Virus record (IMG/VR): IMGVR_UViG_3300021399_000147
Span: 8,894-72,893 of that record
Length of the DNA stretch: 64,000 nucleotides
From: a virus
Taxonomy: Duplodnaviria > Caudoviricetes
Direction: 5' to 3' (one strand)
Position numbers and translations under genes: made by a program. Positions within the stretch are counted from its first letter, which is position 1; every line of letters starts with the position of its first letter. The notes beneath the pieces are model-generated. The model had not been told where the DNA came from, made no database searches, and was given only the letters and a program-made list of their open reading frames with translations. Shown piece after piece: positions 17,621-64,000 of the stretch.

Positions 17621-17626
17621 TTATTA

Positions 17627-17697
17627 TTCCTGTTGAAGCGCAATATCAGATATGCTATCCTAATACTGTAAACAGAAACACACAGATTGAAAGGAGA
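17627..17697 (+). promoter_or_regulatory. Cassette promoter and leader, copy 1
   Basis: TTGAAG(17633)-17-TATCCT(17656), AACACAC, TTGAAAGGAG. Confidence 0.8.
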
Positions 17698-17701
17698 ATA
17701 A

Positions 17702-17998: not shown

Positions 17999-18007
17999 GG
18001 TGAAGAG

Positions 18008-18597: not shown

Positions 18598-18851
18598 ACA
18601 GAGAAGAAACGAAAAAACACTTTAAATCTTGGTGTCAGGGGCATATAGGTAACAATGGATCCGATAAAGATTATCATATGTTCAATAATATTATGGCATT
18701 GTTAGAGCAAGAGCCTACGCTTTACAAGATATTCTGCATAGTACATCCATTAAGCATTATGTCAACACCAGAGTTGGAACACAAAGCAATAATGCAGATA
18801 GCAGAGTTGTTAGAACCAATATGTTTGCCGGAAAGTGAGGACGAGGAATGA
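18594..18851 (+). CDS. Mosaic small protein (LEQEP)
   Basis: ORF track; shared junction. Confidence 0.6.
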   Translation: MNREETKKHFKSWCQGHIGNNGSDKDYHMFNNIMALLEQEPTLYKIFCIVHPLSIMSTPELEHKAIMQIAELLEPICLPESEDEE

Positions 18852-19108
18852 CAAACGGAGAGAAACTAAAAGAAATATTTCCAAATTTACGAATAATAGA
18901 GTGTAAGTATTTTGTAGGTGTAATGGGAGAAAATTATGAATTTAATAATACATACCCATTAAAATGGTGGAATGCTGAATATAAAGAACCAATAACTTGT
19001 AAGGATTGTAAATCCAGAAAGTGTAATGATGCTGGTGATTATTATTGTGATATAACTGGTGGATATTATGAACCCGATTATCATTGTAAAGATGCGAAGA
19101 GAAAGTAG
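18848..19108 (+). CDS. Hypothetical protein, paralog of 19118..19417
   Basis: MTNGEKLKEIFP...WWNAEYKEP. Confidence 0.65.
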   Translation: MTNGEKLKEIFPNLRIIECKYFVGVMGENYEFNNTYPLKWWNAEYKEPITCKDCKSRKCNDAGDYYCDITGGYYEPDYHCKDAKRK

Positions 19109-19117
19109 GGTAAGAAA

Positions 19118-19417
19118 ATGACAAATGGAGAGAAACTAAAAGAAGTATTTCCAGATATAGAATTTACAGAAATGGCGTATACTGTTCATGCAGTGGCAGG
19201 AGTCACTTCAAATGGAGTAAAGGGACACATTAGTTATGATTTTTGGAAAGAATGGTGGAACGCAGAATATAAAGAGCCAAGAAAAGGTTATCTATCCATT
19301 GATGATGTAATGGAGGTATTTGATGATTTTATGTGTGGAGAAGTGGACGAAGATGGCATAGACACATTTGTGGAAATGTTAAGAGATAAGGCAGATATGA
19401 GAGAGGTAGAAGAATGA
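19118..19417 (+). CDS. Hypothetical protein, paralog of 18848..19108
   Basis: MTNGEKLKEVFP...WWNAEYKEP. Confidence 0.65.
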   Translation: MTNGEKLKEVFPDIEFTEMAYTVHAVAGVTSNGVKGHISYDFWKEWWNAEYKEPRKGYLSIDDVMEVFDDFMCGEVDEDGIDTFVEMLRDKADMREVEE

Positions 19418-19752
19418 CAAGAAAAGAAAGAGCTATAAAAAATCTAAAACAGATGTGTAGTGATGGAAGATATTTAGGAAGTGGGAGTTATGTACCTTTA
19501 GAAGTGTTAGAAGATTTTAATTTAGCAATTCAAGCACTAGAGCAAGAGCCTAGATGGATTCCTGTTAGTGAGAAGTTGCCCGAATCAGATGAAGAATATC
19601 ACACGTTTTTGGTAACAGATAATAAAGGTAGGGTAACATTATCAGAGTTTTATCTATCAATATCGGATAGGAAACCTTATTGGAGTGGGATGATAGATGT
19701 TAAAGCATGGATGCCATTACCGAAACCATATGAAGTAGAAAGTGAGGAATAA
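19414..19752 (+). CDS. DUF551-like domain protein
   Basis: WIPVSEKLPE...VKAWMPLPKPY. Confidence 0.75.
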   Translation: MTRKERAIKNLKQMCSDGRYLGSGSYVPLEVLEDFNLAIQALEQEPRWIPVSEKLPESDEEYHTFLVTDNKGRVTLSEFYLSISDRKPYWSGMIDVKAWMPLPKPYEVESEE

Positions 19753-19909
19753 GGATGGGATGTTCAAAATGTGAATATGCACCAAGAACATACGAGGAAT
19801 ATTGTATGAGTACAAAGCAACCACAATCATTTTGTCCAGATGCTTATACAGAGAAAGCACAATACTGTGGTAATTATGAAAAATCACAGGCAGAAAGTGA
19901 GGAATAAAC

Positions 19910-20179
19910 ATGGCAGATATAGAGTTAGTGATTAAGATACCAGAAAGCACATATCAAGTATTTAAACAACTTAGTAAGATTATAGGTGTTCTAGTATATG
20001 AAAAAGATATTTTAACGCTTATAAAAGCAGTTAAAAATGGCACACCACTTCCTAAAGGACATGGAAGATTGATAGATGCTGATGATATAGATAATCATAT
20101 TATAGGTCACGTTGATACAAGAAGTTGTCCAACAATCATAGAAGCAGACAAGGGAAGTGAGGGAATATGTCAGAGCTAA
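19910..20179 (+). CDS. Hypothetical protein
   Basis: NGTPLPKGHGRLIDAD..PTIIEAD, common phage motif. Confidence 0.65.
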   Translation: MADIELVIKIPESTYQVFKQLSKIIGVLVYEKDILTLIKAVKNGTPLPKGHGRLIDADDIDNHIIGHVDTRSCPTIIEADKGSEGICQS

Positions 20180-20283
20180 TAGCAATCTATTTGGTAGGTT
20201 TTGTAGGTGGAACATTGTTCGGATTGTCAATTGCATTTGCAGTATGGGTATATAAAGTAAAAAGCAGAAAGTGAGGAATAAAT

Positions 20284-20523
20284 ATGCAAAAAATAAATTG
20301 GGATGAGATAGATAAACAGGAAATATCAAAGTCGGTAGTATTACTTGATTTGTTTACCAAAACCTTTTGTAGATACCAGAATGATTATGAGAGGTTTGAC
20401 GATTTGAAATTTAGATGTGATGAATGTCCATTCAGCAAATCTAATGGGAATTGTATGTGTAAAGAGTTTAAAAACAAATACGCTCCAGATTATCGAGATT
20501 TTGGTAGTATGGGGGATTTATAA
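20284..20523 (+). CDS. Hypothetical Cys-containing protein
   Basis: ORF track; GTGAGG RBS. Confidence 0.6.
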   Translation: MQKINWDEIDKQEISKSVVLLDLFTKTFCRYQNDYERFDDLKFRCDECPFSKSNGNCMCKEFKNKYAPDYRDFGSMGDL

Positions 20524-20646
20524 GGCAGAAAGTGAGGAAACATGAATGTATAATTTCTTACTAGGATGTGTTATAGGTGCAATAATTACAAATCTTTTAT
20601 GGTATATACATGACAGAAAGTGAGAAATAAGAAGTGAGGAATAAAG

Positions 20647-20832
20647 ATGCCTAGAAAGAAAAAAGAGCCCCCTACATATTCAAAAGAATATGAATGGGAA
20701 TTATATCAGAAATTACAGAATCATGCCTTTAGTGATGAGGATATATTACAAGGATTCTTTCATCATCTTACGCCCGAAGAGTCTTGTGCGGTAATGGAAG
20801 ATATTTGTAGGGAAAATGAAATAGAGCTTTAA
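20647..20832 (+). CDS. Hypothetical protein, paralog of 21313..21492
   Basis: YSKEYEWEL..KL....SDEDIL..F...C..MEDICR versus YSRDYESEL..KL....TDEDL...F...C..LEDACR. Confidence 0.6.
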   Translation: MPRKKKEPPTYSKEYEWELYQKLQNHAFSDEDILQGFFHHLTPEESCAVMEDICRENEIEL

Positions 20833-20834
20833 AG

Positions 20835-20908
20835 TTCCTGTTGAAGTGTGTTATTGCTTATGCTATCCTAATATCGTAAACAATAACACACTTTTATTTT
20901 GAAGGAGA
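20835..20908 (+). promoter_or_regulatory. Cassette promoter and leader, copy 2
   Basis: TTGAAG(20841)-17-TATCCT(20864), AACACAC, GAAGGAG. Confidence 0.8.
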
Positions 20909-20916
20909 TTGAAGTT

Positions 20917-21126
20917 ATGGTGGAAATTAAAAAGAAGTGCTTAATCTGTGGTAAGACCACATCACTAAAAATCACAAACAAGGTAGCAGAGATGTATGAC
21001 AAGTATTTAGCTGGATATGGACTTATTCAAGATTTACCATTGCCAGCTGATAAGAGAGAATTTCTTATGTCAGGTATGTGCATGAGCTGTCAGGAAGATT
21101 TCTTTAATAGTGAGGAGGAAGAGTGA
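20917..21126 (+). CDS. Small zinc-binding protein
   Basis: CLICG..REFLMSGMCMSCQEDFF. Confidence 0.65.
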   Translation: MVEIKKKCLICGKTTSLKITNKVAEMYDKYLAGYGLIQDLPLPADKREFLMSGMCMSCQEDFFNSEEEE

Positions 21127-21299
21127 TGGATAATATTGTAATGTTCTTTGATAGAAAAGGCGAAGGTCATTATGGTCTGATGATTAGAGAATATCCAGCA
21201 TTTGAGGGTGGTATGAGATATATCATTGAGGATGAGACTAGCGGATATGAGTATAGATGCGTTAAAGAGAATGGCAAGTATGTAGAGCTTGTGGTGTGA
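21126..21299 (+). CDS. Hypothetical protein (57 aa)
   Basis: Manual translation MDNIVMFFDRKG...VELVV. Confidence 0.55.
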   Translation: MDNIVMFFDRKGEGHYGLMIREYPAFEGGMRYIIEDETSGYEYRCVKENGKYVELVV

Positions 21300-21312
21300 A
21301 AGGAGAACAGAT

Positions 21313-21492
21313 ATGAGTAAGCCATATAGTAGAGATTATGAAAGTGAATTATTGGATAAACTCAGAGAGAATGAAATAACAGATGAGGATTTAGTAGGAT
21401 GTTTCCTAAACTATTTTAGCTCAGATGATACTTGTGCCTGTCTTGAAGATGCGTGCAGAACCTATGATATAGAATATGAGGAGGAAGAGTAA
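21313..21492 (+). CDS. Hypothetical acidic protein, paralog of 20647..20832
   Basis: AAGGAG RBS before ATG 21313. Confidence 0.6.
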   Translation: MSKPYSRDYESELLDKLRENEITDEDLVGCFLNYFSSDDTCACLEDACRTYDIEYEEEE

Positions 21493-21770
21493 TGATGGAA
21501 TATGTTACCCAATGCAAAGATAACAAGACAGGACTTACATTAGTCTTGTCTGAGGTAAGCTATAATCAAGCGATTGACTGGTTACAGAGAAAAGCCGAAA
21601 AGTATTTCAAAGAAATATTTAGGTGTGAAAGTATAGATACTACCCGTACAGTAATAAGTGTAGGCACACCTAAGCATGATTTTGATTTTAACGGTAATCC
21701 TACTGTGTGGTACACTAATATCATTAAGTTCTACTATGATGAGGAAAGAGGATTGCTTCTGGAAGAATAA
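21492..21770 (+). CDS. Hypothetical protein
   Basis: ORF track. Confidence 0.6.
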   Translation: MMEYVTQCKDNKTGLTLVLSEVSYNQAIDWLQRKAEKYFKEIFRCESIDTTRTVISVGTPKHDFDFNGNPTVWYTNIIKFYYDEERGLLLEE

Positions 21771-21780
21771 AGGAGATTAT

Positions 21781-22056
21781 ATGGAGATTCAGTATTCGTT
21801 TAAACCTGAAGAGGTTATATGTGATTTCAAGTTGATTGGCGAAACCTTTATGTTAGGCAGTCAAAAAGTAAAGACAGGAAAAGGCAAGAGAATGTACACT
21901 CAGTTAATTACATCAAAAGGATATGATGATATTGCAGTGGAGTTGATAAACAAAGCTAGATACGCATATACTCATGGATTAAAGAATGATGTGGTTTTAA
22001 CATCACAAGAGATAAGGGTATTAAAAGAGCTGGTAATTTACTGTGTAGGACTATAA
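21781..22056 (+). CDS. Hypothetical protein
   Basis: AAGGAG RBS before ATG 21781. Confidence 0.6.
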   Translation: MEIQYSFKPEEVICDFKLIGETFMLGSQKVKTGKGKRMYTQLITSKGYDDIAVELINKARYAYTHGLKNDVVLTSQEIRVLKELVIYCVGL

Positions 22057-22057
22057 C

Positions 22058-22132
22058 TTCCTATTGTAGGATAGTACAGAACGTGCTATCCTATACTTGT
22101 AAACGAAAACACACTTTTTATTGTAAAGGAGA
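22058..22132 (+). promoter_or_regulatory. Cassette promoter and leader, copy 3 (hairpin-forming)
   Basis: TTGTAG(22064)-17-TATCCT(22087); inverted repeat TAGGATAG/CTATCCTA. Confidence 0.8.
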
Positions 22133-22138
22133 AAAACT

Positions 22139-22459
22139 ATGGAAATGTTATTTGATGAGAAAGATTATGAGCCACTGAAAGAAGGCGAGACTTACGAAGG
22201 TAAGTTCGTTATTATCGCACCTAAGTACTTTAGACCTGAGTATAGAAGTGCTAAGTACCAGTTGTTTCATGCAGAAGGTGGATTTGGTTGTGACCCTAGT
22301 AAGATGGGTAATGCAGTATTCGGCAGAGATTGTGAAGAGATGTATAGGCAGGAGAGATATAACATTCTTGGTGTAGCTAAAGAGTCTGCAATTCGTGAGT
22401 GGGAAAAAACCTACCATATGAGTAGAGAGGATATATTGAAAGTAGGTAGAGATGAGTAA
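22139..22459 (+). CDS. Conserved hypothetical protein (YQLF..GGFGC.P motif recalled from Firmicutes mobile elements)
   Basis: KYFRPEYRSAKYQLFHAEGGFGCDPSKMGNAVFG. Confidence 0.6.
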   Translation: MEMLFDEKDYEPLKEGETYEGKFVIIAPKYFRPEYRSAKYQLFHAEGGFGCDPSKMGNAVFGRDCEEMYRQERYNILGVAKESAIREWEKTYHMSREDILKVGRDE

Positions 22460-22637
22460 AGGAAGAGATTTCTATAATTTAAGAGCCCTGCTAAAACAGC
22501 GGGGCTACAATGTTTCTGATGATTATATATGGGCAGTAATAGATTATCTTGATTTATGTCCTGATACATACACTATATTTGACTGGTTAGAAGATACAGA
22601 GAAGAACTATCCAGAAACTTTGAAAGGAGAATATTAG
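22452..22637 (+). CDS. Hypothetical protein
   Basis: ORF track. Confidence 0.55.
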   Translation: MSKGRDFYNLRALLKQRGYNVSDDYIWAVIDYLDLCPDTYTIFDWLEDTEKNYPETLKGEY

Positions 22638-22639
22638 TT

Positions 22640-22948
22640 ATGCAAAAACAAAAAGAACATACATATCGGAGAATGATAGTAGGAAAGAATGTAAAATTCA
22701 GATTAAACGAGGTATACAAGGACATAGCTATCTATGAAGAAATTTGTCCTACAGGATATGTAGTTAGTCAGTCTTGGTTACTTGTAAATCAGCACCTCTA
22801 TATATTTGTACAGTCATACAATAATATGTGCAAAGAAGAGTTGCTGGACGCCATTGACAACTATAAGGATTGTGGTGAGTTTGGATTCAAGGGATTTATG
22901 AGAATAACAGGTTTTACAGTTCATCCGAACGGAAAGGATACATTATGA
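22640..22948 (+). CDS. Hypothetical protein
   Basis: ORF track; AAAGGAG RBS. Confidence 0.55.
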   Translation: MQKQKEHTYRRMIVGKNVKFRLNEVYKDIAIYEEICPTGYVVSQSWLLVNQHLYIFVQSYNNMCKEELLDAIDNYKDCGEFGFKGFMRITGFTVHPNGKDTL

Positions 22949-23283
22949 GTTTTTGTGATTTCCATACAATGCAGACAAAATCGGGGCGTACATTTACGCC
23001 CCTTAACAGTTATGATGTTGTCGAGGTTATCAGAGATGATATGGGTGATGAAGTAGCTGATGAGGTAACTGGATGGTTAGAAGAGAACGTCAGAGAAGAG
23101 ATGGAGTTCAATTCTGACTACACTGCTATGGAGCAGGAAGTAGAAATCTGGCATAGTTTTGTAGATGACCTCTCAGAAGAAATCGAGCGGCTAAGAGAAA
23201 AGATAGAGGATAATAAATTGACAAAAGCCAATATTTCAGTGGAACTCTATAAAATCTATGAAAAGATGAGAAAGGAGCTTTAA
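22945..23283 (+). CDS. Hypothetical acidic coiled-coil protein
   Basis: ORF track. Confidence 0.6.
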   Translation: MSFCDFHTMQTKSGRTFTPLNSYDVVEVIRDDMGDEVADEVTGWLEENVREEMEFNSDYTAMEQEVEIWHSFVDDLSEEIERLREKIEDNKLTKANISVELYKIYEKMRKEL

Positions 23284-23336
23284 TATGTGGTACTTGATAT
23301 TATTTATTCTGTTTTGTGTCTTTGTTCTTTGAAATA

Positions 23337-23413
23337 TTCCTGTTGTAAGGGCAATCAGAGTGTGTTATCCTATTATTGTAAACAAAAACACACACAAAAC
23401 ATTGAAAAGGAGA
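23337..23413 (+). promoter_or_regulatory. Cassette promoter and leader, copy 4
   Basis: TTGTAA(23343)-17-TATCCT(23366), AACACAC, TTGAAAAGGAG. Confidence 0.8.
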
Positions 23414-23421
23414 TTACCGTT

Positions 23422-23667
23422 ATGACAAAGCAGGAAAAGAAAGAATATGAGAACAAGGAACCAATAGCAACATTTGTATTGTGCAACTTAGGCGGAATAG
23501 AGATTTTAGATATTCTCTATGGAATTGATGATTATGTAGTATACCGATTTAACTTTGGTAAGCCTGAAGAAACACACAGAGCTAAAATAAGATATGGTGT
23601 AAACCACTCTAGTTTCAAGACATTTGTTGGATATAGCGTACGTCTTGATGAGTGCATGAGAGTATGA
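23422..23667 (+). CDS. Hypothetical protein
   Basis: Start at ATG 23422 after the cassette RBS; LGGIEILDI..GIDDYV..R..LDECMRV. Confidence 0.65.
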   Translation: MTKQEKKEYENKEPIATFVLCNLGGIEILDILYGIDDYVVYRFNFGKPEETHRAKIRYGVNHSSFKTFVGYSVRLDECMRV

Positions 23668-23680
23668 AAGGAGAATTAAG

Positions 23681-23899
23681 ATGGAAGAAGAATTTGTGAT
23701 TGTAGGAGATTCAAAGAAATTTAAAGGCTGTCTGATAACTACTTGTGGAACTAAGCAGAGAGCAGAAGAGGTATTGGAGCGTATGTTAACAGCTCCAACA
23801 CGTAATGATAAACTACTAATAGGTGATTGCACTAATCTAAGAATAAAGGGCTGTGACCCTAAGAAGTCTTGGTGGAATGATTCAGTACTTGCAAATTGA
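23681..23899 (+). CDS. Hypothetical protein
   Basis: ORF track; AAAGGAG RBS. Confidence 0.6.
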   Translation: MEEEFVIVGDSKKFKGCLITTCGTKQRAEEVLERMLTAPTRNDKLLIGDCTNLRIKGCDPKKSWWNDSVLAN

Positions 23900-23914
23900 A
23901 AGGAGAATAAGATA

Positions 23915-24088
23915 ATGGGTGAACATGAATATACTTGTTGCATATGTGGAAAACATTTTGTAGGCTGGGGTAATGACCCTTGGCCAGTAGATATGAGAGA
24001 TAATGTGGAGTGTTGTAATGCTTGCAATAATAGCAAAGTATTACCTGCAAGACTCCAGAGTTTATATAAAAATGGAAAGGAGAATTGA
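23915..24088 (+). CDS. Small zinc-finger protein
   Basis: Manual translation CCICGKHFVGWGNDPWP..CCNACN..VLPAR. Confidence 0.7.
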   Translation: MGEHEYTCCICGKHFVGWGNDPWPVDMRDNVECCNACNNSKVLPARLQSLYKNGKEN

Positions 24089-24092
24089 GATT

Positions 24093-24275
24093 ATGGAAGA
24101 ACGAATACAGATTATTAAATCTTATATAGATTATTATTTAGATTGCGCAAAAAAAGAAACGGATGTTATTAAAAAAGATTTATGGGTAGAATCAGCCGCA
24201 CATTGGACGCAATATCTAAAGAGTATATCAGGCATTAAATATAGGGAAAAAGAATGTAATATTTATTGCCAATAA
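24093..24275 (+). CDS. Hypothetical protein
   Basis: AAAGGAG RBS before ATG 24093. Confidence 0.5.
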   Translation: MEERIQIIKSYIDYYLDCAKKETDVIKKDLWVESAAHWTQYLKSISGIKYREKECNIYCQ

Positions 24276-24307
24276 AACCTAATTTTCATTGGGAAAGGAG
24301 AATTAAG

Positions 24308-24601
24308 ATGACAAAAGAATCCGAAGTAGTAAGAGATAGATTTGAAGCCTTAGTAAAGAAGTATGGATATAGAAGTATAAGGAATGTCTGCTTATCAGCA
24401 GGCATTACTGCTTCTAATCTATATTCCAATATTACAGGAGTGTATGACATATCCATTAAAAGAATGTTCAGGATAGCCAATGTTCTAGGCTGTGATGTGA
24501 CAGAGGTTATAGATGCATTTCACCACGACCTATATGAGGAGAATAAAGAGATAGTAGCAGAAGGTAAGAAACTTCCTGTTGAAGTGGTAGAAAATGTGTG
24601 A
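24308..24601 (+). CDS. XRE/Cro-C1 HTH transcriptional regulator
   Basis: SIRNVCLSAGITASNLYSNITG...SIKRMFRIANVLGCDV. Confidence 0.75.
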   Translation: MTKESEVVRDRFEALVKKYGYRSIRNVCLSAGITASNLYSNITGVYDISIKRMFRIANVLGCDVTEVIDAFHHDLYEENKEIVAEGKKLPVEVVENV

Positions 24602-24644
24602 TATCCTATACTCGTAAACAAAAACACACTTATTGTAAAGGAGA
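24573..24644 (+). promoter_or_regulatory. Cassette promoter and leader, copy 5 (overlaps 3' end of the XRE gene)
   Basis: TTGAAG(24579)-17-TATCCT(24602). Confidence 0.8.
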
Positions 24645-24650
24645 TTAGTT

Positions 24651-24971
24651 ATGGAAAACTACAACTTTAAAATTACAGAATGGTTAGACAATCAGGTAGA
24701 GTACACGAAGAAGCTGAGTGAGATTGTGGAATTTAAAGATGATGATGTGGAATTACACAATCTGGCAATGCACAGAGATAAGTACGAGGTCCATTTAGCA
24801 ACAGATACCTTGAGATTCATAGCCACAAAGTTAAATTTAGACTTATGTGTAGGCTCAAGGAGAAAATATGATAAAGAAAATCCTTATGAGGTGTTCTTTA
24901 TATATAAGGGCTTTAAGTTCTTAGATATAGAAACCGAAGAAGAATATCAGAAATACGGACCAGTGGTTTAA
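24651..24971 (+). CDS. Hypothetical protein
   Basis: ORF directly behind the cassette leader. Confidence 0.65.
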   Translation: MENYNFKITEWLDNQVEYTKKLSEIVEFKDDDVELHNLAMHRDKYEVHLATDTLRFIATKLNLDLCVGSRRKYDKENPYEVFFIYKGFKFLDIETEEEYQKYGPVV

Positions 24972-24984
24972 CTCGCTGATACTT

Positions 24985-25027
24985 CAAGCACTAGGAATGT
25001 AAAAGTTCCTAGTGCTTTTCTTTTTTA
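24985..25027 (+). terminator. Intrinsic terminator
   Basis: AAGCACTAGGAA-TGTAAAAG-TTCCTAGTGCTT followed by TTCTTTTTTT. Confidence 0.8.
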
Positions 25028-25082
25028 GATATGCTATCCTATTATTAGAAACAAGAACACACAGATTGAAAGGAGAGCCAAT

Positions 25083-25337
25083 ATGAAGAAACCTACATTA
25101 GTATTTTTTGATGAAGCTTATGGCTATACTGCATCAGCAACAAGAGAAGCAGGCAGAGACCTGACAGAGAAAGAAATGAGAAAGTGGTGGAAACACTACG
25201 CAAAGAGAGCACCTGAGTGTATAGCTATATCAGCAACCTATGAGAATGATGAGGGCGAAATTAGAGATATTACAGAAAACTGGGTGATGCACGAATGTGC
25301 CATGTATGCAGATGCACATAGTAATATTTTTAACTGA
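25083..25337 (+). CDS. Hypothetical protein behind partial cassette leader (copy 6)
   Basis: TATCCT at 25035, AACACAC and TTGAAAGGAG present, canonical -35 block absent. Confidence 0.6.
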   Translation: MKKPTLVFFDEAYGYTASATREAGRDLTEKEMRKWWKHYAKRAPECIAISATYENDEGEIRDITENWVMHECAMYADAHSNIFN

Positions 25338-25350
25338 AAGGAGACAGATT

Positions 25351-25596
25351 ATGTGCCACGGATGTAATGATTGCAAATGGTGTAAATGTTATAGAGGTGA
25401 CTATTGGACACCTGATGAATATGAGTGTCAAGGTGGATATGATATACCTGAAGATGTTATGCAGAGAGTATGGGAAAATGGTGAAGAGTGGAAAGATAAT
25501 GAAGAGCCCATCTGCCCTGCGTATGAAGAAGCACCTACAGAAGATGATGAGTATTGGGACAGATACGCTTATGAGGAGAATAAATCAGAGAGATAA
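25351..25596 (+). CDS. Cys-rich acidic small protein
   Basis: MCHGCNDCKWCKC..GDYWTPDEYEC..ICPAYEE. Confidence 0.6.
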   Translation: MCHGCNDCKWCKCYRGDYWTPDEYECQGGYDIPEDVMQRVWENGEEWKDNEEPICPAYEEAPTEDDEYWDRYAYEENKSER

Positions 25597-25597
25597 T

Positions 25598-25730
25598 TAC
25601 CTGTTGAAGGTACTTACTAGCTGTGAGACAATATACTTGTAAACAGTAATTGACAGCTAGTAAGTACTCCTGATGCTGAGTATACTCCGTCAGAAGTGCT
25701 GAACGGGTCACAACAACACACAAAGGAGAG
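25598..25730 (+). promoter_or_regulatory. Cassette promoter copy 7 with a structured insertion in the leader
   Basis: TTGAAG(25604)-17-GACAAT(25627); perfect 15-bp inverted repeat 25610-25624/25653-25667. Confidence 0.7.
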
Positions 25731-25735
25731 AAGAT

Positions 25736-26056
25736 ATGATACAGTTAGATGGAGTTTACCCAAGTAATATCAATGGAGTAGTAATTGAGAAGTTTGAAGA
25801 TATGCTGGCAGACCATCCTCTTGATGACAGATATGCTAAAGATATTGTGACAACCAATAATGCTAATATTCAGGCATATTCAGATGAGTTTGCAAAGCAG
25901 GTAGCATATGCAGAGAATATTGATTTTGGTGAATGGATTAAGTACAACACAGGATTGATGCCTTATATCAAGAAAGCCGCAAACACAGTACACTGGTTAC
26001 ATGAGAATGGATATACAGAGTACAAGGTAAATATGCAGTCGGGAATCATTAAGTAA
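25736..26056 (+). CDS. Hypothetical protein
   Basis: ORF track; AAAGGAG RBS. Confidence 0.65.
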   Translation: MIQLDGVYPSNINGVVIEKFEDMLADHPLDDRYAKDIVTTNNANIQAYSDEFAKQVAYAENIDFGEWIKYNTGLMPYIKKAANTVHWLHENGYTEYKVNMQSGIIK

Positions 26057-26070
26057 GAAGGAGAACAGTT

Positions 26071-26421
26071 ATGGCAACAATGATTAAATATGGAACAAAA
26101 TTAGGTGAAAGTCTTATTCACGATATGAATTATTATAGGCATGATGGAGATACACTCTATGAAGTGTATGGTAAACCATCTAAGAAAAAGAGAGATAGTT
26201 GGGAGAAGATTAGACGGGATTGTGAGTATCTCAAAGGCAGACACCTTCATATAATAGGAGCATCAAGTTATAGTTATTCCTGTATATATGCTTATCCTGT
26301 ATATGATTTTAGGGATAACAGCATTATATCTATGATTATTAGAAAAGAAACATCAGGCAGCACATATGAGATGGAAATGCCATTAGATGATTACGAAAGA
26401 TTGATAATAAGAAGGCATTGA
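26071..26421 (+). CDS. Hypothetical protein
   Basis: LYEVYGKPSKKKRDSWEKI...IIGASSYSYSC. Confidence 0.65.
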   Translation: MATMIKYGTKLGESLIHDMNYYRHDGDTLYEVYGKPSKKKRDSWEKIRRDCEYLKGRHLHIIGASSYSYSCIYAYPVYDFRDNSIISMIIRKETSGSTYEMEMPLDDYERLIIRRH

Positions 26422-26479
26422 GAATGACTGCCTTAAAGAAAATTGATTACGAGGAATTACCTTTCAATTAAATGTGTGT

Positions 26480-26518
26480 TTAGTCGTGTAGGTGTAACAG
26501 CTTGCACGACTATTTTTT
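26480..26518 (+). terminator. Intrinsic terminator
   Basis: TAGTCGTGTAG..TTGCACGACTA followed by TTTTTT. Confidence 0.7.
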
Positions 26519-26637
26519 AGGCGTAAAAATCAATAGCGCCAGGAAGCTCAGGATTCGATTTTTATTATTCGATTGATAAAATGTTCATTGAAGCAGATTA
26601 AAAGCTCAGGAAAGAGCTGGAAATGAGAAGTCAAAAC

Positions 26638-26707
26638 TTCCTGTTGTAGCTCATTATCAGATGTGCTATCCTATTCTTGTAAAAAGTAATACATATTGAA
26701 AAGGAGA
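26638..26707 (+). promoter_or_regulatory. Cassette promoter and leader, copy 8
   Basis: TTGTAG(26644)-17-TATCCT(26667). Confidence 0.8.
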
Positions 26708-26715
26708 TTACCATT

Positions 26716-26940
26716 ATGAATGAGAATGTAACATACCTATTAGAGAAGCATGGCCTTGAAAACTATGAAGATTACGCTGCCATGTTAGGAAATATGAGTC
26801 AGGCGGCAAAAGAAATGCTCGAAAGTACAGAGATGGGCGAAAGAGATGATATAGAGAAGAATAACCTTAAGATATTAACAGAGTTACTTCCTATATGCTC
26901 AGACTTATTCATTAACTGTGACCCGTATTACAGAAAATAA
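26716..26940 (+). CDS. Hypothetical protein
   Basis: ORF behind the cassette leader; stop abuts the next promoter. Confidence 0.65.
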   Translation: MNENVTYLLEKHGLENYEDYAAMLGNMSQAAKEMLESTEMGERDDIEKNNLKILTELLPICSDLFINCDPYYRK

Positions 26941-27011
26941 TTCCTATTGATAGGCTAACATAGATGTGTTAGCCTATTATTGTAAACAAACACACATATT
27001 GAAAGAGAGGA
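26941..27011 (+). promoter_or_regulatory. Cassette promoter and leader, copy 9 (hairpin-forming)
   Basis: TTGATA(26947)-17-TAGCCT(26970); inverted repeat ATAGGCTAACA/TGTTAGCCTAT. Confidence 0.8.
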
Positions 27012-27018
27012 AACCGAT

Positions 27019-27297
27019 ATGATGTATGGAATGAAACGAGAGTTACCTAGAAATAAAGAGGGAAAGAAGTTATACCCAGTATGCTCATGGGAAAAGAATC
27101 AGCACAAGCTCTATAACGCCCATGATAGAGTGATGAATGCCATTAGTGATGGCAAAGCAGATTGGGATGACCTTGATAAAGTTGAGAAAGCTATGGGAGC
27201 ATTTGAAGCTCATGTTATAGATGGCACAGTATTCGCAACATGGGAAGACCGAAATCTGATAATGGATTATATATTCGCATATAATGCCAGACACTAA
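27019..27297 (+). CDS. Hypothetical protein
   Basis: ORF behind the cassette leader. Confidence 0.65.
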   Translation: MMYGMKRELPRNKEGKKLYPVCSWEKNQHKLYNAHDRVMNAISDGKADWDDLDKVEKAMGAFEAHVIDGTVFATWEDRNLIMDYIFAYNARH

Positions 27298-27317
27298 TGT
27301 CTGGCATTTATTTTTTT
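27283..27317 (+). terminator. Intrinsic terminator
   Basis: AATGCCAGACA-CTAA-TGTCTGGCATT followed by TATTTTTTT. Confidence 0.75.
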
Positions 27318-27385
27318 CCTGTTGATAGGTTAGCATCAGTATGCTAACCTATTCTTGTAAACAAAAACACACTAAAAAGAGAGGT
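27316..27385 (+). promoter_or_regulatory. Cassette promoter and leader, copy 10 (hairpin-forming)
   Basis: TTGATA(27322)-17-TAACCT(27345); inverted repeat ATAGGTTAGCAT/ATGCTAACCTAT. Confidence 0.8.
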
Positions 27386-27392
27386 AACCATT

Positions 27393-27593
27393 ATGTTTGA
27401 AGAAGTTATTGCCAATGCAGTAAAAGCCTATGATGAAGAAGTAGCTGAGGTTAAGATTGAAGATAAGGTTGTCACCATCACATATACAGACGGTGATACA
27501 TACACAGGTGAAGTCAGAATAGATGGCTCAACCATTCTGTTAGATTTTCACAGAACCTTCATCATCAGAATAGACCTTAATGCCAATATGTAA
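27393..27593 (+). CDS. Hypothetical protein
   Basis: ORF behind the cassette leader. Confidence 0.6.
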   Translation: MFEEVIANAVKAYDEEVAEVKIEDKVVTITYTDGDTYTGEVRIDGSTILLDFHRTFIIRIDLNANM

Positions 27594-27608
27594 AGAGAGG
27601 CGGCAAAT

Positions 27609-27746
27609 ATGAAGATGTATTTAGAAGTAATAAATGGCTATGAGGTTTATTATACAGATGGTGATTGGGTTGTAGAAGATGAATATGGCTGTTGCACACC
27701 ATATGAGACATTTGAAGATGCCAAAGCGGCAGCAGAAGAAATGTAA
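27609..27746 (+). CDS. Hypothetical acidic protein (45 aa)
   Basis: Manual translation MKMYLEVINGY...AAAEEM; GAGG RBS. Confidence 0.55.
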   Translation: MKMYLEVINGYEVYYTDGDWVVEDEYGCCTPYETFEDAKAAAEEM

Positions 27747-27748
27747 AT

Positions 27749-27820
27749 TACCTATTGCAGGTTAGCAGTCAGAGTGCTAACCTATACTTGTAAACAAACA
27801 CACACATATTTGAAAGGGGT
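27749..27820 (+). promoter_or_regulatory. Cassette promoter and leader, copy 11 (hairpin-forming)
   Basis: TTGCAG(27755)-17-TAACCT(27778); inverted repeat AGGTTAGCA/TGCTAACCT. Confidence 0.8.
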
Positions 27821-27827
27821 AAACATT

Positions 27828-28085
27828 ATGCAGAGAAGAAAATCATTATCCGAGAAAGATGTTAGAACAGTTTTAGCCGTCATTGAGTGCTTCCAAGAGC
27901 AGAATCATTATAGATTTGATGAGATGAACCGTATCATGGGAAATCTGACAATCGAAGATATGATAGCCTTGAAGTCAAAGCTAGAGAAGTGGAAGGGCGA
28001 AGAAGTTGTAGATGAGTATGAAGATGTGGACATGGATGAGTATAGAGAATCCTATGCTGATTATATAGCACCATATATCTATTAA
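27828..28085 (+). CDS. Hypothetical protein with acidic tail
   Basis: ATG 27828 after the cassette RBS. Confidence 0.65.
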   Translation: MQRRKSLSEKDVRTVLAVIECFQEQNHYRFDEMNRIMGNLTIEDMIALKSKLEKWKGEEVVDEYEDVDMDEYRESYADYIAPYIY

Positions 28086-28100
28086 GAAAGGAGAAATATT

Positions 28101-28304
28101 ATGTTAATGATTACAACACCAAATGGTAAATTAGAGCTTAGAAGTTTTGGCAAGTCCATGTACGGAGGATGGTATTTAGATTACTATGACTTCAACCTTG
28201 AGAAGATGGACGGTATAAAGAGAAATACGCTCCGTGAGTTATGTGAGTGGGCAGGTGTAGATAAATCTACTATGATTAAGAGAGTAAAGAGATGGGACAA
28301 TTAA
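28101..28304 (+). CDS. Hypothetical protein
   Basis: ORF track; AAAGGAG RBS. Confidence 0.6.
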   Translation: MLMITTPNGKLELRSFGKSMYGGWYLDYYDFNLEKMDGIKRNTLRELCEWAGVDKSTMIKRVKRWDN

Positions 28305-28407
28305 AATAATCGTGCCAGGATGACTTTCCAGACACTTTAAACATCTATGTCGATAAAAGTATCATCTGAGATATTTAGGTGTCTGGAAAAGCGAAGGCAG
28401 AATAAAA

Positions 28408-28486
28408 TTCCTGTTGAAGCAGTATTTCCAATATGCTATCCTGTTCTTGTAAGAAATAACACACATTTGAAAGATATGAAAGGAGA
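28408..28486 (+). promoter_or_regulatory. Cassette promoter and leader, copy 12
   Basis: TTGAAG(28414)-17-TATCCT(28437). Confidence 0.8.
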
Positions 28487-28492
28487 ACCTAT

Positions 28493-28660
28493 ATGTTGAT
28501 GGCAGTATTCAATGCTAAGGTGTATCTTGAAAGAGCAAACAGCGACCACTTTGAGGCATCAAAGTTACTTCACAGAGATTATCAGAGAGGATACTACACA
28601 GAAGATGAGTACCTTGAGATGATGGATGTGCTTGCATCTAAGATGATGTGGGAGCACTGA
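28493..28660 (+). CDS. Hypothetical protein (55 aa)
   Basis: Manual translation MLMAVFNAKVY...MMWEH behind the cassette RBS. Confidence 0.6.
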   Translation: MLMAVFNAKVYLERANSDHFEASKLLHRDYQRGYYTEDEYLEMMDVLASKMMWEH

Positions 28661-28672
28661 TAACTGAATAAG

Positions 28673-28744
28673 TTCCGCTTGAAAGAATAGCAACTAAGTG
28701 CTATCCTGTTCTTGTAAACAGAAAACACACATTTGAAAAGGAGA
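28673..28744 (+). promoter_or_regulatory. Cassette promoter and leader, copy 13
   Basis: TTGAAA(28679)-17-TATCCT(28702); short inverted repeat ATAGCA/TGCTAT. Confidence 0.8.
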
Positions 28745-28751
28745 TACCAAT

Positions 28752-29015
28752 ATGAAAATTGAAATTTTAATTCCATACCTTATTCGTCAAGTAGTTGATG
28801 TAACTGTTACAGAATGTCCTATGGGCATCAAGTGTTACGAAAGTGACGAGATTGAGTTTATGTTATTTGGAAGAACCCATGTGTTGACCTTCACAATAGA
28901 AGAGAGACCTGACAGTAAAACCTTGTACTATACGATTGATAGAAATTATGATGACCAGAAAGCTCTTAGAGAGAATGAATTTACCTACAATTTAGTGAAG
29001 GAGGTGACAGTATGA
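28752..29015 (+). CDS. Hypothetical protein
   Basis: ORF behind the cassette leader. Confidence 0.6.
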   Translation: MKIEILIPYLIRQVVDVTVTECPMGIKCYESDEIEFMLFGRTHVLTFTIEERPDSKTLYYTIDRNYDDQKALRENEFTYNLVKEVTV

Positions 29016-29179
29016 GTCAGCGTCCATGTATAGGTTGTATCTACTATAAGCAGTGCGGTGAAAGCACAAGAACAATGCCATGTGAAGGCAGAATGACAAA
29101 GACCGATAAGAAAAGACGAGAGGAACTAATAAGAGAGGGAGAAAGGGAGCAGGCTAGAAGAGCCTTCTACGAAGATTAA
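29012..29179 (+). CDS. Small Cys-containing protein (55 aa)
   Basis: Manual translation MSQRPCIGCIYYKQCGESTRTMPCEGR; GGAGGTG RBS. Confidence 0.6.
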   Translation: MSQRPCIGCIYYKQCGESTRTMPCEGRMTKTDKKRREELIREGEREQARRAFYED

Positions 29180-29288
29180 AAGGGAGAGAGGAAAACAGTA
29201 TGATAAAAGGATATTACACAGACGGGGATGGAAAGACATATGCGTATGAGAACGGCGAATGGAAAGAAATCGAAGAAGGAGATAAGAG

Positions 29289-29744
29289 ATGAACACACCA
29301 TATAATGAATATTCAGCAGGAGATGTAGCAGAGATATTAAAGGTAGACAGGTCAACAATTACATATTGGTGTAGAAAAGGTTTGATAATTGCAAAGAGTG
29401 TTAGTGATGGTGCAAAAAATGCCCGTTGGGTTATTCCAGAAAAAGAAGTAGAATATCTTAGGCAGCTCGGTAAGCAGTATGGAAGTAAAGGAATCATGAA
29501 GCACTATGAAAGAGTGGGAGAAGAGATAACTCCAGCTGTTGCAGTACCTACTATAAAAGATGATACCCCTACAACAGAAATCAAAAAAGAGGCGGCACCA
29601 AAGAAGTTCGATATAGATGAAATAGCCTTACAAATAGCACAAATCCAAGATATAAAAGAAGAACTAAATAATCTGGATGCAAGAAAGACCCAACTTCTTA
29701 ATGAGCTGGAAGCAATAAGAAAAGACATTCAGCCATATCTCTAA
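29289..29744 (+). CDS. Excisionase/MerR-like HTH DNA-binding protein with coiled-coil tail
   Basis: YSAGDVAEILKVDRSTITYWCRKGLI.A......RWVIPE. Confidence 0.75.
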   Translation: MNTPYNEYSAGDVAEILKVDRSTITYWCRKGLIIAKSVSDGAKNARWVIPEKEVEYLRQLGKQYGSKGIMKHYERVGEEITPAVAVPTIKDDTPTTEIKKEAAPKKFDIDEIALQIAQIQDIKEELNNLDARKTQLLNELEAIRKDIQPYL

Positions 29745-29748
29745 TCAG

Positions 29749-29785
29749 AAATAGGGGCGGTATAAAGAGTACTGCTCCTATTTTA
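29749..29785 (+). terminator. Intrinsic terminator
   Basis: AATAGGGGCGGTA..TACTGCTCCTATT followed by TT. Confidence 0.6.
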
Positions 29786-30367
29786 ATATATCCATATATA
29801 GTCACTAATAAATCATAATATCCCTAATAAATCATCAATCAAATCAGAAAAGCATAATCCAATCAGAAAAGCAGGGCGGCATAAAAGACACCTGTGATTA
29901 TAAAAATAACCAGTAATACCATATTCCAATATAATCAATAGAAGTAGTAATAGTATAGATAGATATACCAACATGCCCTCTTGCCTTCTTTTAGCCTTGT
30001 ATTCACAGAAATGTTGTAGCCATCTGTGTTTGTCTTAGTTTTTAGTACATCTTCCTTTATCCATTTTTAGCCCCTTTCCCATCATCCTTCTCCCTCATCC
30101 TTATTATCATTAGCCCGGCGCCCGCCGTCGATATTTGATTTCAATCAAACAATTTCGCCATCCTAGGCCCAAAATGGCACGTTTTTGAGCCATTTTTGCT
30201 CCATTGGCGATTCTCGTTGTGCAAGGTGCACAAGTCTCCATTTCAGCATCCCCGCAGGGTTTGGGGAGGATGGCAACGATATTTCGATAGGTAGTGTTTT
30301 TTTTTATCGAGTAGGAAACACGATATTTCGTAATGCCATCCTGAGGTATTGTGATTTTGCACAAAAG

Positions 30368-30435
30368 TTCCTATTGTAGGAAAGTGCTGGACGTGATACC
30401 ATAAAATAAAAACAGCACACAGATTTGAAAGGAGA
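30368..30435 (+). promoter_or_regulatory. Cassette promoter and leader, copy 14
   Basis: TTGTAG(30374)-17-TACCAT(30397), GCACAC, TTGAAAGGAG. Confidence 0.7.
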
Positions 30436-30443
30436 ACCTAATT

Positions 30444-31067: not shown

Positions 31068-31191
31068 ATATACAGAAACAAACAAGTCTAGTTGTTTCTA
31101 GTCGTGTTCACGACTTTGTTAGTATCTAAACTAACACACTATAACACACAGTAACGTAAAAACATTGTAAAATTGAAAGGAAAAAACGAAC

Positions 31192-62027: not shown

Positions 62028-62458
62028 GAAAACTAATCAACACAGAGGAACGAACTGACACAGTATATCAGGAGGATGACATTAAGGTCTTAGTAGAAAA
62101 ATACATAGAAAATAAAGACCAAGAAACTCACTATAAGAATCTTGCATCCGCCGAGAATACTCAGATTAAAGAGATGATGGCAACATTAAATATCAATAAA
62201 GTTGATACAGCAATGGGCAGTGCCATAGTTTCAGAACAGAAGCGAGAAAATTTCATTGAGGATTTATTGATTGATTTCTTAAAGAAGAATGGAAAAGCAG
62301 ATGGCATAGTTAAAACTAAAGAATATGTTGACTATGACGCTTTAGAATCAGCTATCTATAATGAAAAGATTCCTGCTGATATGTTAAGTGCTATGGCAGT
62401 TTGTAAGGAAGTAAAGACAGTTAAAGTGTTGAGAATCAAAAAGAAAGGAGAAAAATGA
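62024..62458 (+). CDS. Hypothetical protein (Gam-like pattern possible)
   Basis: IVKTKEYVDYDALESAIY. Confidence 0.55.
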   Translation: MRKLINTEERTDTVYQEDDIKVLVEKYIENKDQETHYKNLASAENTQIKEMMATLNINKVDTAMGSAIVSEQKRENFIEDLLIDFLKKNGKADGIVKTKEYVDYDALESAIYNEKIPADMLSAMAVCKEVKTVKVLRIKKKGEK

Positions 62459-62561
62459 TGTTAATAAATCCATTTGTAGCAGGTGTATTAAGTACGATAT
62501 TCTGTGAGATGTTATGTATTATTATTCTAGCAGTAATTAAATATTCAGGAGGAAAGAAATA

Positions 62562-62804
62562 ATGAGTTATGAAGTAAAAGGAAAAACAAAATCTATTAAA
62601 GGAACTTCAAGATGTGCTATGTGCATCAAAGACAGATTCTCAGGAAAAGACAATTATTACACAATTGAAGTTACAGAAGAAAGGGATATTCCAGATGTAG
62701 AAGATGTGAATATGGATAAAGAGTATGAAGCACTCTTCGATTCCATAAATGATGTAGTAGATAATCAGATGGAACAGATTGTAAAAGCAGTTAAGGGCGA
62801 ATAA
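62562..62804 (+). CDS. Hypothetical acidic protein
   Basis: ORF track; AGGAGG RBS. Confidence 0.65.
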   Translation: MSYEVKGKTKSIKGTSRCAMCIKDRFSGKDNYYTIEVTEERDIPDVEDVNMDKEYEALFDSINDVVDNQMEQIVKAVKGE

Positions 62805-62814
62805 ATAAATCCTG

Positions 62815-62843
62815 TTGATAACACACTACGAATATGTTAAAGT
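62815..62843 (+). promoter_or_regulatory. Cassette-class promoter driving the candidate sRNA
   Basis: (TCCTG)TTGATA-17-TAAAGT with TG extension; same TCCTGTTG context as the cassette promoters. Confidence 0.65.
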
Positions 62844-62849
62844 AATATA

Positions 62850-62944
62850 TGTAAATGAGATGTAAGTCACATTTGCGAAAATCCTTTCAATAAATATAGT
62901 GTGTTAGCAAAGACAGCAGGAAATCTATGTTCCTGCTGTCTTTT
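62850..62944 (+). ncRNA. Candidate trans-acting antisense sRNA complementary to the cassette leaders
   Basis: 5' hairpin 62851-62876; unpaired TCCTTTCAATAAATATAGTGTGTTAG; 14-bp terminator hairpin 62909-62943; no ORF with an RBS. Confidence 0.65.
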
Positions 62945-62945
62945 C
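62909..62945 (+). terminator. Intrinsic terminator
   Basis: AAAGACAGCAGGAA-ATCTATG-TTCCTGCTGTCTTTT. Confidence 0.85.
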
Positions 62946-62948
62946 GTA

Positions 62949-62977
62949 TTGACAGCATATTTATAATATGTTATAGT
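62949..62977 (+). promoter_or_regulatory. Sigma-A promoter of the replication initiator gene
   Basis: TTGACA-17-TATAGT with TG extension. Confidence 0.8.
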
Positions 62978-63179
62978 ATGTTTATGATGTATGCAGTAGA
63001 CTAGCTATCTATTGTGTGCTACAATGAATAAGCCAGTTGATGTGCGCATACGTTGACTGACAATGTACAAACACATAATAACTGGCAAAGAGCTTGATAT
63101 GAGGAAGATGCGCCTTCTGAATATCGAGCTTTTTATTTTAAGAAATACAGAGGAGAATTGTTGGGAGGAGAATTGAATA

Positions 63180-64000
63180 ATGAAAGATACTAATTTCTTT
63201 TGTGTCCAAGCTTGGATGGTTACAAAGTTAAATTTAAAGGGCGCAGAGCGTGATATATACGCTATTCTATATGGATTCACACAAGATAATGAAAGTGAGT
63301 GTAAATGTAGTTACACATATATGTCCACTATAACAGGATATACAAAAAGAGCAATAATGGATGCAATGGACAGACTATTAGCTAAAAATTATATAGTAAA
63401 ATCTGGCTCAGACTCAGATAAAGATATGAGAAATATCTATAAATGCAACTTTGATTTCATTGATGGAATATTAAGAGGGGGTGAAATAACTTCACCACTA
63501 GGGGGTGAAATAACTTCACCACTAGGGGGTGAAATAACTTCACTACATAATATAAATAATAAAAATAAATCCTATAATAAAAGCACCGGAGCCGGTGCTC
63601 TTTCTAAAAATCATTCTCAGGTCTATAAGAAAAGAGAAACTCTAAATGATGATTTAGAGAGTGGAAAAGATATAGATAAACAAAAGTCTGATAAAAGAAA
63701 ATCTCCTAAAGAAAAGTTTAAAGATGAGTGTTATAGTCTGATAGATAGTTTTGTTACAGACAATCATCTTGATTATGCAGTCCACGATTTACTTATAGAA
63801 TATTTTGATTTTATCTCAGATATTAAACAAGCTGATGGAGATAATAAACAAAAGGTTGTTAAAAATACTAGCACATGGGAAAAGAAGCTCAATAATCAAT
63901 TGTTAAAGCTCATTGAAAATGGATATAACCCTATTGATATTATTAGACAAAGTTTAGATAAAAAATATTATAAGTTTGTACCACTAGAATCTAGCAGTAA
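63180..64000 (+). CDS. Replication initiator / replisome organiser (truncated at window end)
   Basis: Manual translation MKDTNFFCVQAWMVTKLNLKGAERDIYAILYGFTQD..winged HTH..LLAKNYIVK, internal iteron repeats; GGAGGAG RBS. Confidence 0.8.
   Translation, partial: MKDTNFFCVQAWMVTKLNLKGAERDIYAILYGFTQDNESECKCSYTYMSTITGYTKRAIMDAMDRLLAKNYIVKSGSDSDKDMRNIYKCNFDFIDGILRGGEITSPLGGEITSPLGGEITSLHNINNKNKSYNKSTGAGALSKNHSQVYKKRETLNDDLESGKDIDKQKSDKRKSPKEKFKDECYSLIDSFVTDNHLDYAVHDLLIEYFDFISDIKQADGDNKQKVVKNTSTWEKKLNNQLLKLIENGYNPIDIIRQSLDKKYYKFVPLESSS
63477..63545 (+). repeat. Iterons (replication origin) inside the initiator gene
   Basis: GGGGGTGAAATAACTTCACCACTA twice plus a 21-bp partial copy; internal inverted repeat GGTGAA/TTCACC. 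Confidence 0.85.

Follow-up and report, generated by a model that had tools for sequence, protein, structure and literature searches.

A candidate trans-acting small RNA complementary to the leader shared by a phage's cassette genes

We describe a compact non-coding unit of an uncultured phage, composed of a strong promoter, a 5′ hairpin, a largely unpaired middle and an intrinsic terminator, in which the middle mirrors the leader shared by 14 promoter–leader–ribosome-binding site (RBS) cassettes of the same genome. From its sequence, its relatives and its predicted pairing we propose, with a probability of roughly 0.55, that the unit encodes a trans-acting small RNA (sRNA) that would pair with the common leader and repress the cassette regulon. 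The DNA analysed here, referred to as the window, is a stretch of 64,000 nt that corresponds to bases 8894–72893 of a 72,893-nt IMG/VR virus record (98% complete), and its + strand carries all of its genes. Because the endolysin is a GH25 enzyme with a CW_7 repeat, the large terminase has its nearest relatives in Clostridia-type phages (with at most 50% identity to any cultured phage), and the sequencing runs on record with the stretch are DNA runs of animal-gut metagenomes only, these features point to an uncultured phage from Gram-positive bacteria of the ruminant gut. A blastn search of 62300–63300 against GenBank phages returned no match. Neither the window's phage (G000) nor four relatives yielded a tyrosine integrase or a serine recombinase (resolvase), so the phage is probably virulent, and a role for the small RNA in prophage immunity was judged unlikely on the same ground. 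The 'DTR' labels of two relatives were set aside as a guide to the first-entering genes, because they place the genome ends at different map positions.

An initial annotation of this DNA had described, between a promoter and a 14-bp terminator, an ORF-less segment with a 5′ hairpin and an unpaired middle; all of these elements are present in the sequence, the fold and a promoter scan (Table 1). The promoter scan placed the −10 element TAAAGT at 62838–62843, preceded by TG at 62835–36. The predicted RNA (62850–62946) folds with a minimum free energy of −30.2 kcal/mol (z = −5.7 against dinucleotide shuffles), and covariance model R1 scored it at 69.4 bits (E 1e-11). Most of the middle is unpaired in the fold, and its reverse complement is CTAACACACTATATTTATTGAAAGGA. 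The middle contains two blocks, UCCUUUCAAU and GUGUGUU, which are reverse-complementary to the conserved block pair of the cassette leader and stand in matching order. The unit holds no ORF of note, no ORF is conserved on either strand, and no gene is encoded opposite 62850–62946. For the unit, Rfam gave no hit at gathering score in a scan of the window and, over 62750–63250 at E ≤ 1, chance matches only; a window-wide inverted-repeat search was uninformative. Between the stop codon at 62804 (gene 62562–62804) and the unit there is no other terminator, and therefore the sRNA terminator also ends the upstream operon, with the unit as the 3′ tail of that operon. The next promoter, which borders the unit downstream, is kept in relatives. 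Near-consensus extended −10 promoters of the form TGTTATAGT number only four per genome and stand at equivalent places in four genomes; the sRNA promoter is one of them, unlike the cassette promoters, whose −10 elements are off-consensus.

Table 1 Features of the sRNA unit, its predicted targets and related elements (window positions unless stated otherwise)
Feature	Position	Strand	Basis or remark
14 promoter–leader–RBS cassettes, predicted targets	17625–30443	+	nhmmer E 1e-18 to 6e-4
Cassette profile starts	17625, 20833, 22056, 23335, 24571, 25004, 25596	+	Profile search
Cassette profile starts, continued	26636, 26939, 27314, 27747, 28406, 28671, 30366	+	Profile search
Second anti-leader copy, promoter-less	26433–26517	+	3′ UTR of operon 25083–26421
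Leader of gene 31192	31131–31181	+	Best + strand match genome-wide: 13/13 nt (31131–31143), 10/10 nt (31172–31181)
sRNA promoter	62810–62843	+	TCCTG 62810–62814, −35 TTGATA 62815–62820, 17-nt spacer, extended −10 TGtTAAAGT 62835–43
Predicted ~95-nt non-coding RNA	62850–62946	+	Predicted start ~7 nt past the −10
5′ hairpin	62851–62876	+	7-bp stem, one G–U; fold
Anti-Shine–Dalgarno block UCCUUUCAAU	62882–62891	+	Pairs with AUUGAAAGGA of the leaders
GUGUGUU block	62899–62905	+	Pairs with AACACAC of the leaders
Intrinsic terminator	62909–62946	+	14-bp stem 62909–22/62930–43, then U run
Next promoter	62949–62977	+	TTGACA-17-TGtTATAGT; drives the replication gene's structured leader; borders the unit downstream
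Four extended −10 promoters	62838, 62972, 32635 and genome position 3255 (before the window)		Small RNA, replication leader, downstream replication block and packaging operon

The cassettes were located with a profile built from 11 copies, which found 14 in the window and 10, 11, 9 and at least 3 in four related genomes. The claim of a leader shared by 'about 15' early mRNAs in the initial annotation thus held for the leader, and the profile search corrected the count to 14; the leaders it had quoted at 17677, 22108, 24623 and 25056 read as claimed. Each cassette consists of TTCCTGTTGA, a spacer, TGCTATCCT (or TGCTACCTT) and ~6 nt, followed by GTAAACA, AACACAC, a variable stretch, (T)TGAAAGGAG and ATG. 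Transcription of the cassettes probably starts near GTAAAC, which would place the two conserved blocks within a leader of 35–45 nt; the distance between the blocks varies among leaders from 2 to ~15 nt, and the leaders are A/C-rich and unstructured. The first block, AACACAC, occurs 25 times in the window versus 6.9 expected, and the composite AACACAC-N2-15-TTGAAAGG occurs five times versus 0 in 100 shuffles. Three of these five composites are on the + strand, in leaders before genes, and two are on the − strand, at the sRNA locus and at 26460–26480. On the map, the array is flanked by the replication and packaging modules. Among the first genes of ten cassettes, no product belongs to a Pfam family and only two have a PHROG (function unknown); that the cassette genes form an early or host-takeover set is a guess made in the initial annotation.

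Two further properties of the cassette promoters were observed. In many of them (22056–27800 and in relatives), the spacer beside the −35 element repeats the −10 region in reverse complement; the two arms of this palindrome change together, as GGATAGC/GCTATCC, GGCTAAC/GTTAGCC, GGTTAGC/GCTAACC and GGTAGC/GCTACC, in G000 and the relatives G001, G003 and G006. In addition, one cassette promoter per genome is followed by a longer non-coding stretch, of ~55–70 nt, in place of the usual leader and RBS (window 25596–25735; G001 9822, G003 46560 and G006 6942 in oriented genome coordinates). This longer stretch is conserved among G001, G003 and G006 (CAGAGAGTAAG...GATGCTGAAATCGCC), and the G000 copy stands in the same place with little shared sequence; it may be a structured 5′ untranslated region or another small RNA.

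Homologues of the sRNA unit were sought by flanking proteins and by the promoter, seed and next-promoter patterns. Seed patterns in viral contigs gave mostly chance matches and one new member, the promoter pattern in metagenome contigs gave at least one, and the next-promoter pattern gave two more. The resulting set (n = 11) comprises the window and at least 10 further copies, of which the covariance model scored the ten strongest at 51–82 bits; one of the contigs, G009, carries the RNA gene, and the cassette region is absent from it. Identity of the flanking proteins among the 11 phages goes down to ~60%. In 11 of 11, the unit follows a homologue of an 80-aa gene and precedes a second strong promoter and the structured leader of the replication-initiator gene. 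The promoter layout TCCTGTT..-N14-ATGTTAWAGT is likewise kept in the same register in all 11, and in most relatives the promoter is nearer to consensus than in the window. All homologues have a 5′ hairpin, a GUGUGUU-type block and a U-run terminator, and their folds reach z values of −3.4 to −7.3. Together, these observations support a conserved non-coding unit that would be read on the + strand from promoter to terminator in 11 phages.

The hairpins and the seed of the RNA changed in different ways. The 5′ hairpins are unrelated to each other in sequence. For the terminator, 93.6% of the cells in 10 homologues are paired versus 77% in shuffles and at most 57% in slid-partner controls, and compensatory changes are present in 11 of its 14 pairs. 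The closest relative has flanking proteins 95% and 83% identical to those of the window; the two phages differ in both hairpins and share the same seed. These comparisons support hairpins in which structure appears to be preserved while sequence changes. The anti-Shine–Dalgarno block is pyrimidine-only in all homologues, reading CUUCUUUCA in six, CUUCUUUCG in one and CUCUUUUCA in two, with two CUUUCAA words as the pyrimidine block of one homologue. Its first letters are CUUCUUUC in seven of the 11 homologues, a form that pairs with GAAAGGAG by way of a single G–U; the same change would weaken a Shine–Dalgarno sequence read on the minus strand. In relatives, GUGUGUU extends to GUUUAC or GUUUUCUUAC, complementary to the extreme 5′ end of their leaders; the seed of G000 is without the complement of the leader's first bases. 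The mean unpaired probability of the seed blocks is 0.34–0.86, and in three homologues part of the anti-Shine–Dalgarno block can form a small internal hairpin.

Target prediction covered the five genomes that hold both the RNA gene and the cassettes, and compared the seed alone with the 57-nt translation-initiation regions of all predicted + strand genes. The initial annotation had set in advance, as a check on its proposal, a comparison of cassette leaders with the background of such a prediction, and in all five genomes the cassette-first genes came out above it (duplex energy, Mann–Whitney p 6e-7, 3e-4, 2e-5, 3e-3 and 2e-5). In G000, the mean duplex energy was −18.4 kcal/mol for cassette-first genes versus −12.0 kcal/mol for other genes, with the cassette-first genes at ranks 2–45 of 132. 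The enrichment was also obtained with the full-length RNA and net cofolding energies (p 6e-7 to 9e-3 in the five genomes) and among only those genes that share a GAAAGG-type Shine–Dalgarno sequence (p 6e-6 to 2e-2). Because it persists at equal Shine–Dalgarno sequence, the private AACACAC block adds specificity. When both strands of G003 were scanned irrespective of genes, cassettes accounted for all of the five best-scoring non-self windows among 7,440. In the duplex scan of G000, the best + strand window besides the RNA's own antisense was the leader of gene 31192 (−23.6 kcal/mol), where the two uninterrupted matches reported in the initial annotation are correct; one minus-strand window beside a cassette scored slightly better, and the leader of the replication gene next door was absent from the top windows. 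Cassette leaders are thus the preferential complement of the sRNA.

In the predicted duplexes both blocks are paired, with an internal loop between them; those of G000 are modest (−18 to −22 kcal/mol, in two helices of 7 and 10 bp). As the anti-Shine–Dalgarno block resembles the 3′ end of 16S rRNA, it fits any strong phage ribosome site; many non-cassette sites fit it as well, and in G000 several non-cassette genes score as high as cassettes and some outrank them. A genuine sRNA with other main targets could account for this, be they host mRNAs whose ribosome sites are strong, phage GAAAGGAG sites damped broadly, or mRNAs that are stabilized by covering of their 5′ ends, and the loss from the G000 seed of the complement to the leader's first bases would suit it. 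We consider such a reading unlikely, since the second block with its extension is conserved and specific to cassette leaders, cassettes keep their rank among genes with the same Shine–Dalgarno sequence, and the order of the blocks equals that of the leader in 11 of 11 homologues. Activation or stabilization is, in addition, hard to reconcile with covering of the Shine–Dalgarno sequence in leaders that are A/C-rich and unstructured.

The profile search also bears on where the sRNA gene came from. Searched with the cassette profile, the RNA body gave opposite-strand matches in G003 (E 9e-4 genome-wide, 3e-6 locally) and G009; these reach from the −10 box, or from where the transcript begins, as far as the Shine–Dalgarno sequence. 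On the + strand, profile positions 2–53 align with the sRNA's own promoter, through to the GTAAA where the RNA would begin. Read from these two matches, the gene therefore joins a promoter of the cassette type to an inverted leader copy, and the earlier proposal that the seed mirrors the cassette leader is borne out, in that both blocks are conserved and the profile covers the whole leader. The terminator stem of G009 includes GCTATC, the −10 box in inverted form. Since many cassette promoters have a palindrome between spacer and −10 box, such a palindrome may be the ancestor of the terminator. We sketch a tentative history, open in principle to any phage with many copies of one promoter–leader cassette and given somewhat less than even odds, in which one cassette was inverted behind a strong promoter and became a master regulator, its former leader now serving as the anti-leader seed, the RNA went on to co-evolve with the leader family as a timer of an accessory-gene regulon, and the promoter palindrome may have become the terminator. 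Membership of the sRNA promoter in the cassette promoter family is a correction to the initial annotation.

The same homology could describe a relic, that is, an inverted cassette promoter and leader that persists only as the terminator of the upstream operon, its complementarity functionless. The RNA body is indeed homologous to a backwards leader, including the −10 box GCTATC in G009, its hairpin is the sole terminator after gene 62562–62804, and co-variation of seed and leader across phages is weak. A relic should decay, however; instead, the hairpins were replaced while both seed blocks were kept in 11 diverged phages, a strong dedicated promoter was retained directly upstream in 11 of 11, and the minus strand offers neither a promoter nor an ORF, which makes a relic improbable, a shade more so than other main targets. 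The initial annotation had itself raised a decayed cassette transcribed from the minus strand. As an evolutionary origin this idea stands; as a present use it fails, as the minus strand at the locus has no promoter, meets the hairpin first, and in most relatives has its Shine–Dalgarno sequence degraded to GAAAGAAG.

As the RNA descends from the leader, complementarity as such is expected, and its retention is what needs explaining. We compared seeds and leaders across five genomes in a double-centred energy matrix. With the 3′ half-seed, 7.5% of permutations reached the observed trace (p ~0.08), a trend only; with the whole seed there was no clear diagonal, and the G000 RNA had no preference for its own leaders over those of relatives. 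Individual cases go further: G006 leaders begin GTAAGAAACAAC or GTAGAAAACAAC, and the complement of GTAAGAAAACAAC is present only in the G006 RNA, and the G003 RNA mirrors GTAAACGAACACAC, a partial match of seed and leader. Co-variation of seed and leader is thus suggestive only, and gene conversion could mimic such co-evolution.

A further possibility is that the selected element is DNA, with the leader serving as the operator of a phage regulator and the inverted copy as an extra operator between two strong promoters. The cassette promoters do hold further conserved DNA (TTCCTGTTGA and the palindromic spacers), which suggests protein control, and the inverted copy lies ~40 nt upstream of the next promoter. 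Block spacing that ranges from 2 to ~15 nt is ill-suited to a fixed protein site, however, and one of the blocks is the ribosome-binding site itself. Moreover, the C-to-U changes in the seed keep RNA pairing through G–U while altering the DNA word, and the copy is framed by features of an RNA, a 5′ hairpin and a U-run terminator. We therefore regard an operator as very improbable.

Our preferred reading remains a trans-acting RNA that represses the cassettes, and we infer its transcription, its pairing in vivo, its negative effect and its timing as follows. One of the phage's four strongest promoters of host type would drive + strand synthesis of a stable ~95-nt RNA. The 5′ block of this RNA (UCCUUUCAAU or CUUCUUUCA) would pair with the extended Shine–Dalgarno sequence of the cassette leaders and its 3′ block (GUGUGUU) with the AACACAC box; in relatives, pairing of the 3′ block would also take in the mRNA's first bases. 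The variable stretch in mid-leader would stay unpaired as an internal loop. Pairing would block 30S binding on the first gene of 10–14 transcription units and would probably speed mRNA decay. In this way, one RNA could turn down the whole set of small ORFans together during lytic growth, be it to delay their expression, to cap it or to shut it off late.

G000 carries a second, promoter-less anti-leader copy, directly after gene 26071–26421, which the initial annotation had overlooked. It contains CCUUUCAAUUAAAUGUGUGUU at 26460–80 (anti-Shine–Dalgarno block and GUGUGUU), a hairpin at 26481–26512 and a U run, scores 24.9 bits with R1 (E 0.04), and mirrors the 5′ leader of its own operon (25056–25075). 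This copy could act within its own mRNA or be released as a 3′-derived RNA. Because both anti-leader copies tail upstream operons, + strand anti-leader RNA should exist whenever those operons are read. The covariance model found no second copy in the four other genomes, where weak matches were rejected as second copies on inspection. As a separate observation, the hairpin before the leader of gene 31192 (31090–31185) shares the stem AGTCGTG/CACGACT with the terminator of the second copy (26481–26512); the two hairpins lie 4.6 kb apart in opposite orientation as an inverted repeat, which may record a past rearrangement.

RsaE/RoxS and RNAIII are chromosomal multi-target sRNAs of Gram-positive bacteria whose pyrimidine-rich seeds cover Shine–Dalgarno sequences. 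The RNA described here has, as they do, an unpaired seed rich in pyrimidines between two terminal hairpins, and like them it is predicted to act on many mRNAs by RBS occlusion. They differ from it in being chromosomal; their targets are not known to share a duplicated leader, nor are they themselves known to be derived from those targets. Unlike cis-antisense RNAs such as lambda OOP and P22 sar, the sRNA is not transcribed opposite a gene that it would control.

Within phages, the closest likeness is to the c4 antisense RNA of the P1/P7 immI region (Citron & Schuster 1990), which pairs through two short blocks around an RBS and blocks translation, which changes together with its target sites between relatives, and which, in the service of prophage immunity, is processed out of the operon that also encodes its single target, icd/ant (PMC12197685). 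Both are small structured phage RNAs with two short RBS-directed blocks, the sRNA being predicted, like c4, to act on phage mRNAs that are not transcribed opposite to it. Unlike c4, the sRNA has a promoter of its own and 10–14 predicted target transcripts with a repeated leader, 32–45 kb from its gene. In addition, c4 belongs to a temperate phage, whereas these phages have no integrase or resolvase, and the two share no sequence or Rfam relationship (the family model is unmatched). That the sRNA would work like c4 yet stand outside the c4 family is part of our main reading, and the probability given for the latter applies to both jointly. In logic, with one phage factor set against many of the phage's own messages at their Shine–Dalgarno regions, the proposal also recalls the T4 endoribonuclease RegB, a protein nuclease aided by ribosomal protein S1 that inactivates many early phage messages at Shine–Dalgarno GGAG sites (PMC3014915). 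Unlike RegB, the proposed agent is an RNA that would recognize the Shine–Dalgarno sequence plus a private leader box by base pairing.

In the literature searched, no phage RNA is described that targets a leader common to many of the phage's own genes. The usual account of timing in lytic phages rests on promoters, sigma factors, anti-terminators and a few protein repressors or nucleases. If our reading is true, it would add an RNA layer to this account, with a phage RNA switching a dozen of the phage's own transcription units through their shared leader, and would explain the identity of a long leader, as well as of the promoter, among small genes that are otherwise unrelated. A single 95-nt RNA would then also be a handle with which to switch a block of ORFan, possibly host-directed, genes. 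Birth by inversion of its own target, as the gene seems to be derived, would be a clear example of how a regulatory RNA arises.

Several further elements were observed in the window. The ~200-nt leader before the replication-initiator gene (62978–63179) is structured, includes a terminator and is conserved in six phages, with 41 consensus pairs, 10 of them with compensatory changes, and no Rfam match. The apical loop of its terminator, ATGCGC (63108–13), is complementary to GCGCAT (63044–49) in an upstream hairpin, and loop and partner change together in every lineage (ACGGCAC/GTGCCGT, ACTGCAC/GTGCAGT, GGGCTAT/ATAGCCC and GGGCAT/ATGCCC), which suggests a pseudoknot or an antiterminator alternative. 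Inside the replication-initiator gene, a perfect 24-nt tandem repeat of 2.8 copies, AGGGGGTGAAATAACTTCACCACT (63476–63543), is iteron-like and may mark a replication origin. In the head module, a GP20-a RNA (Rfam RF02991; 37165–37265, 68.8 bits) stands before gene 37268.
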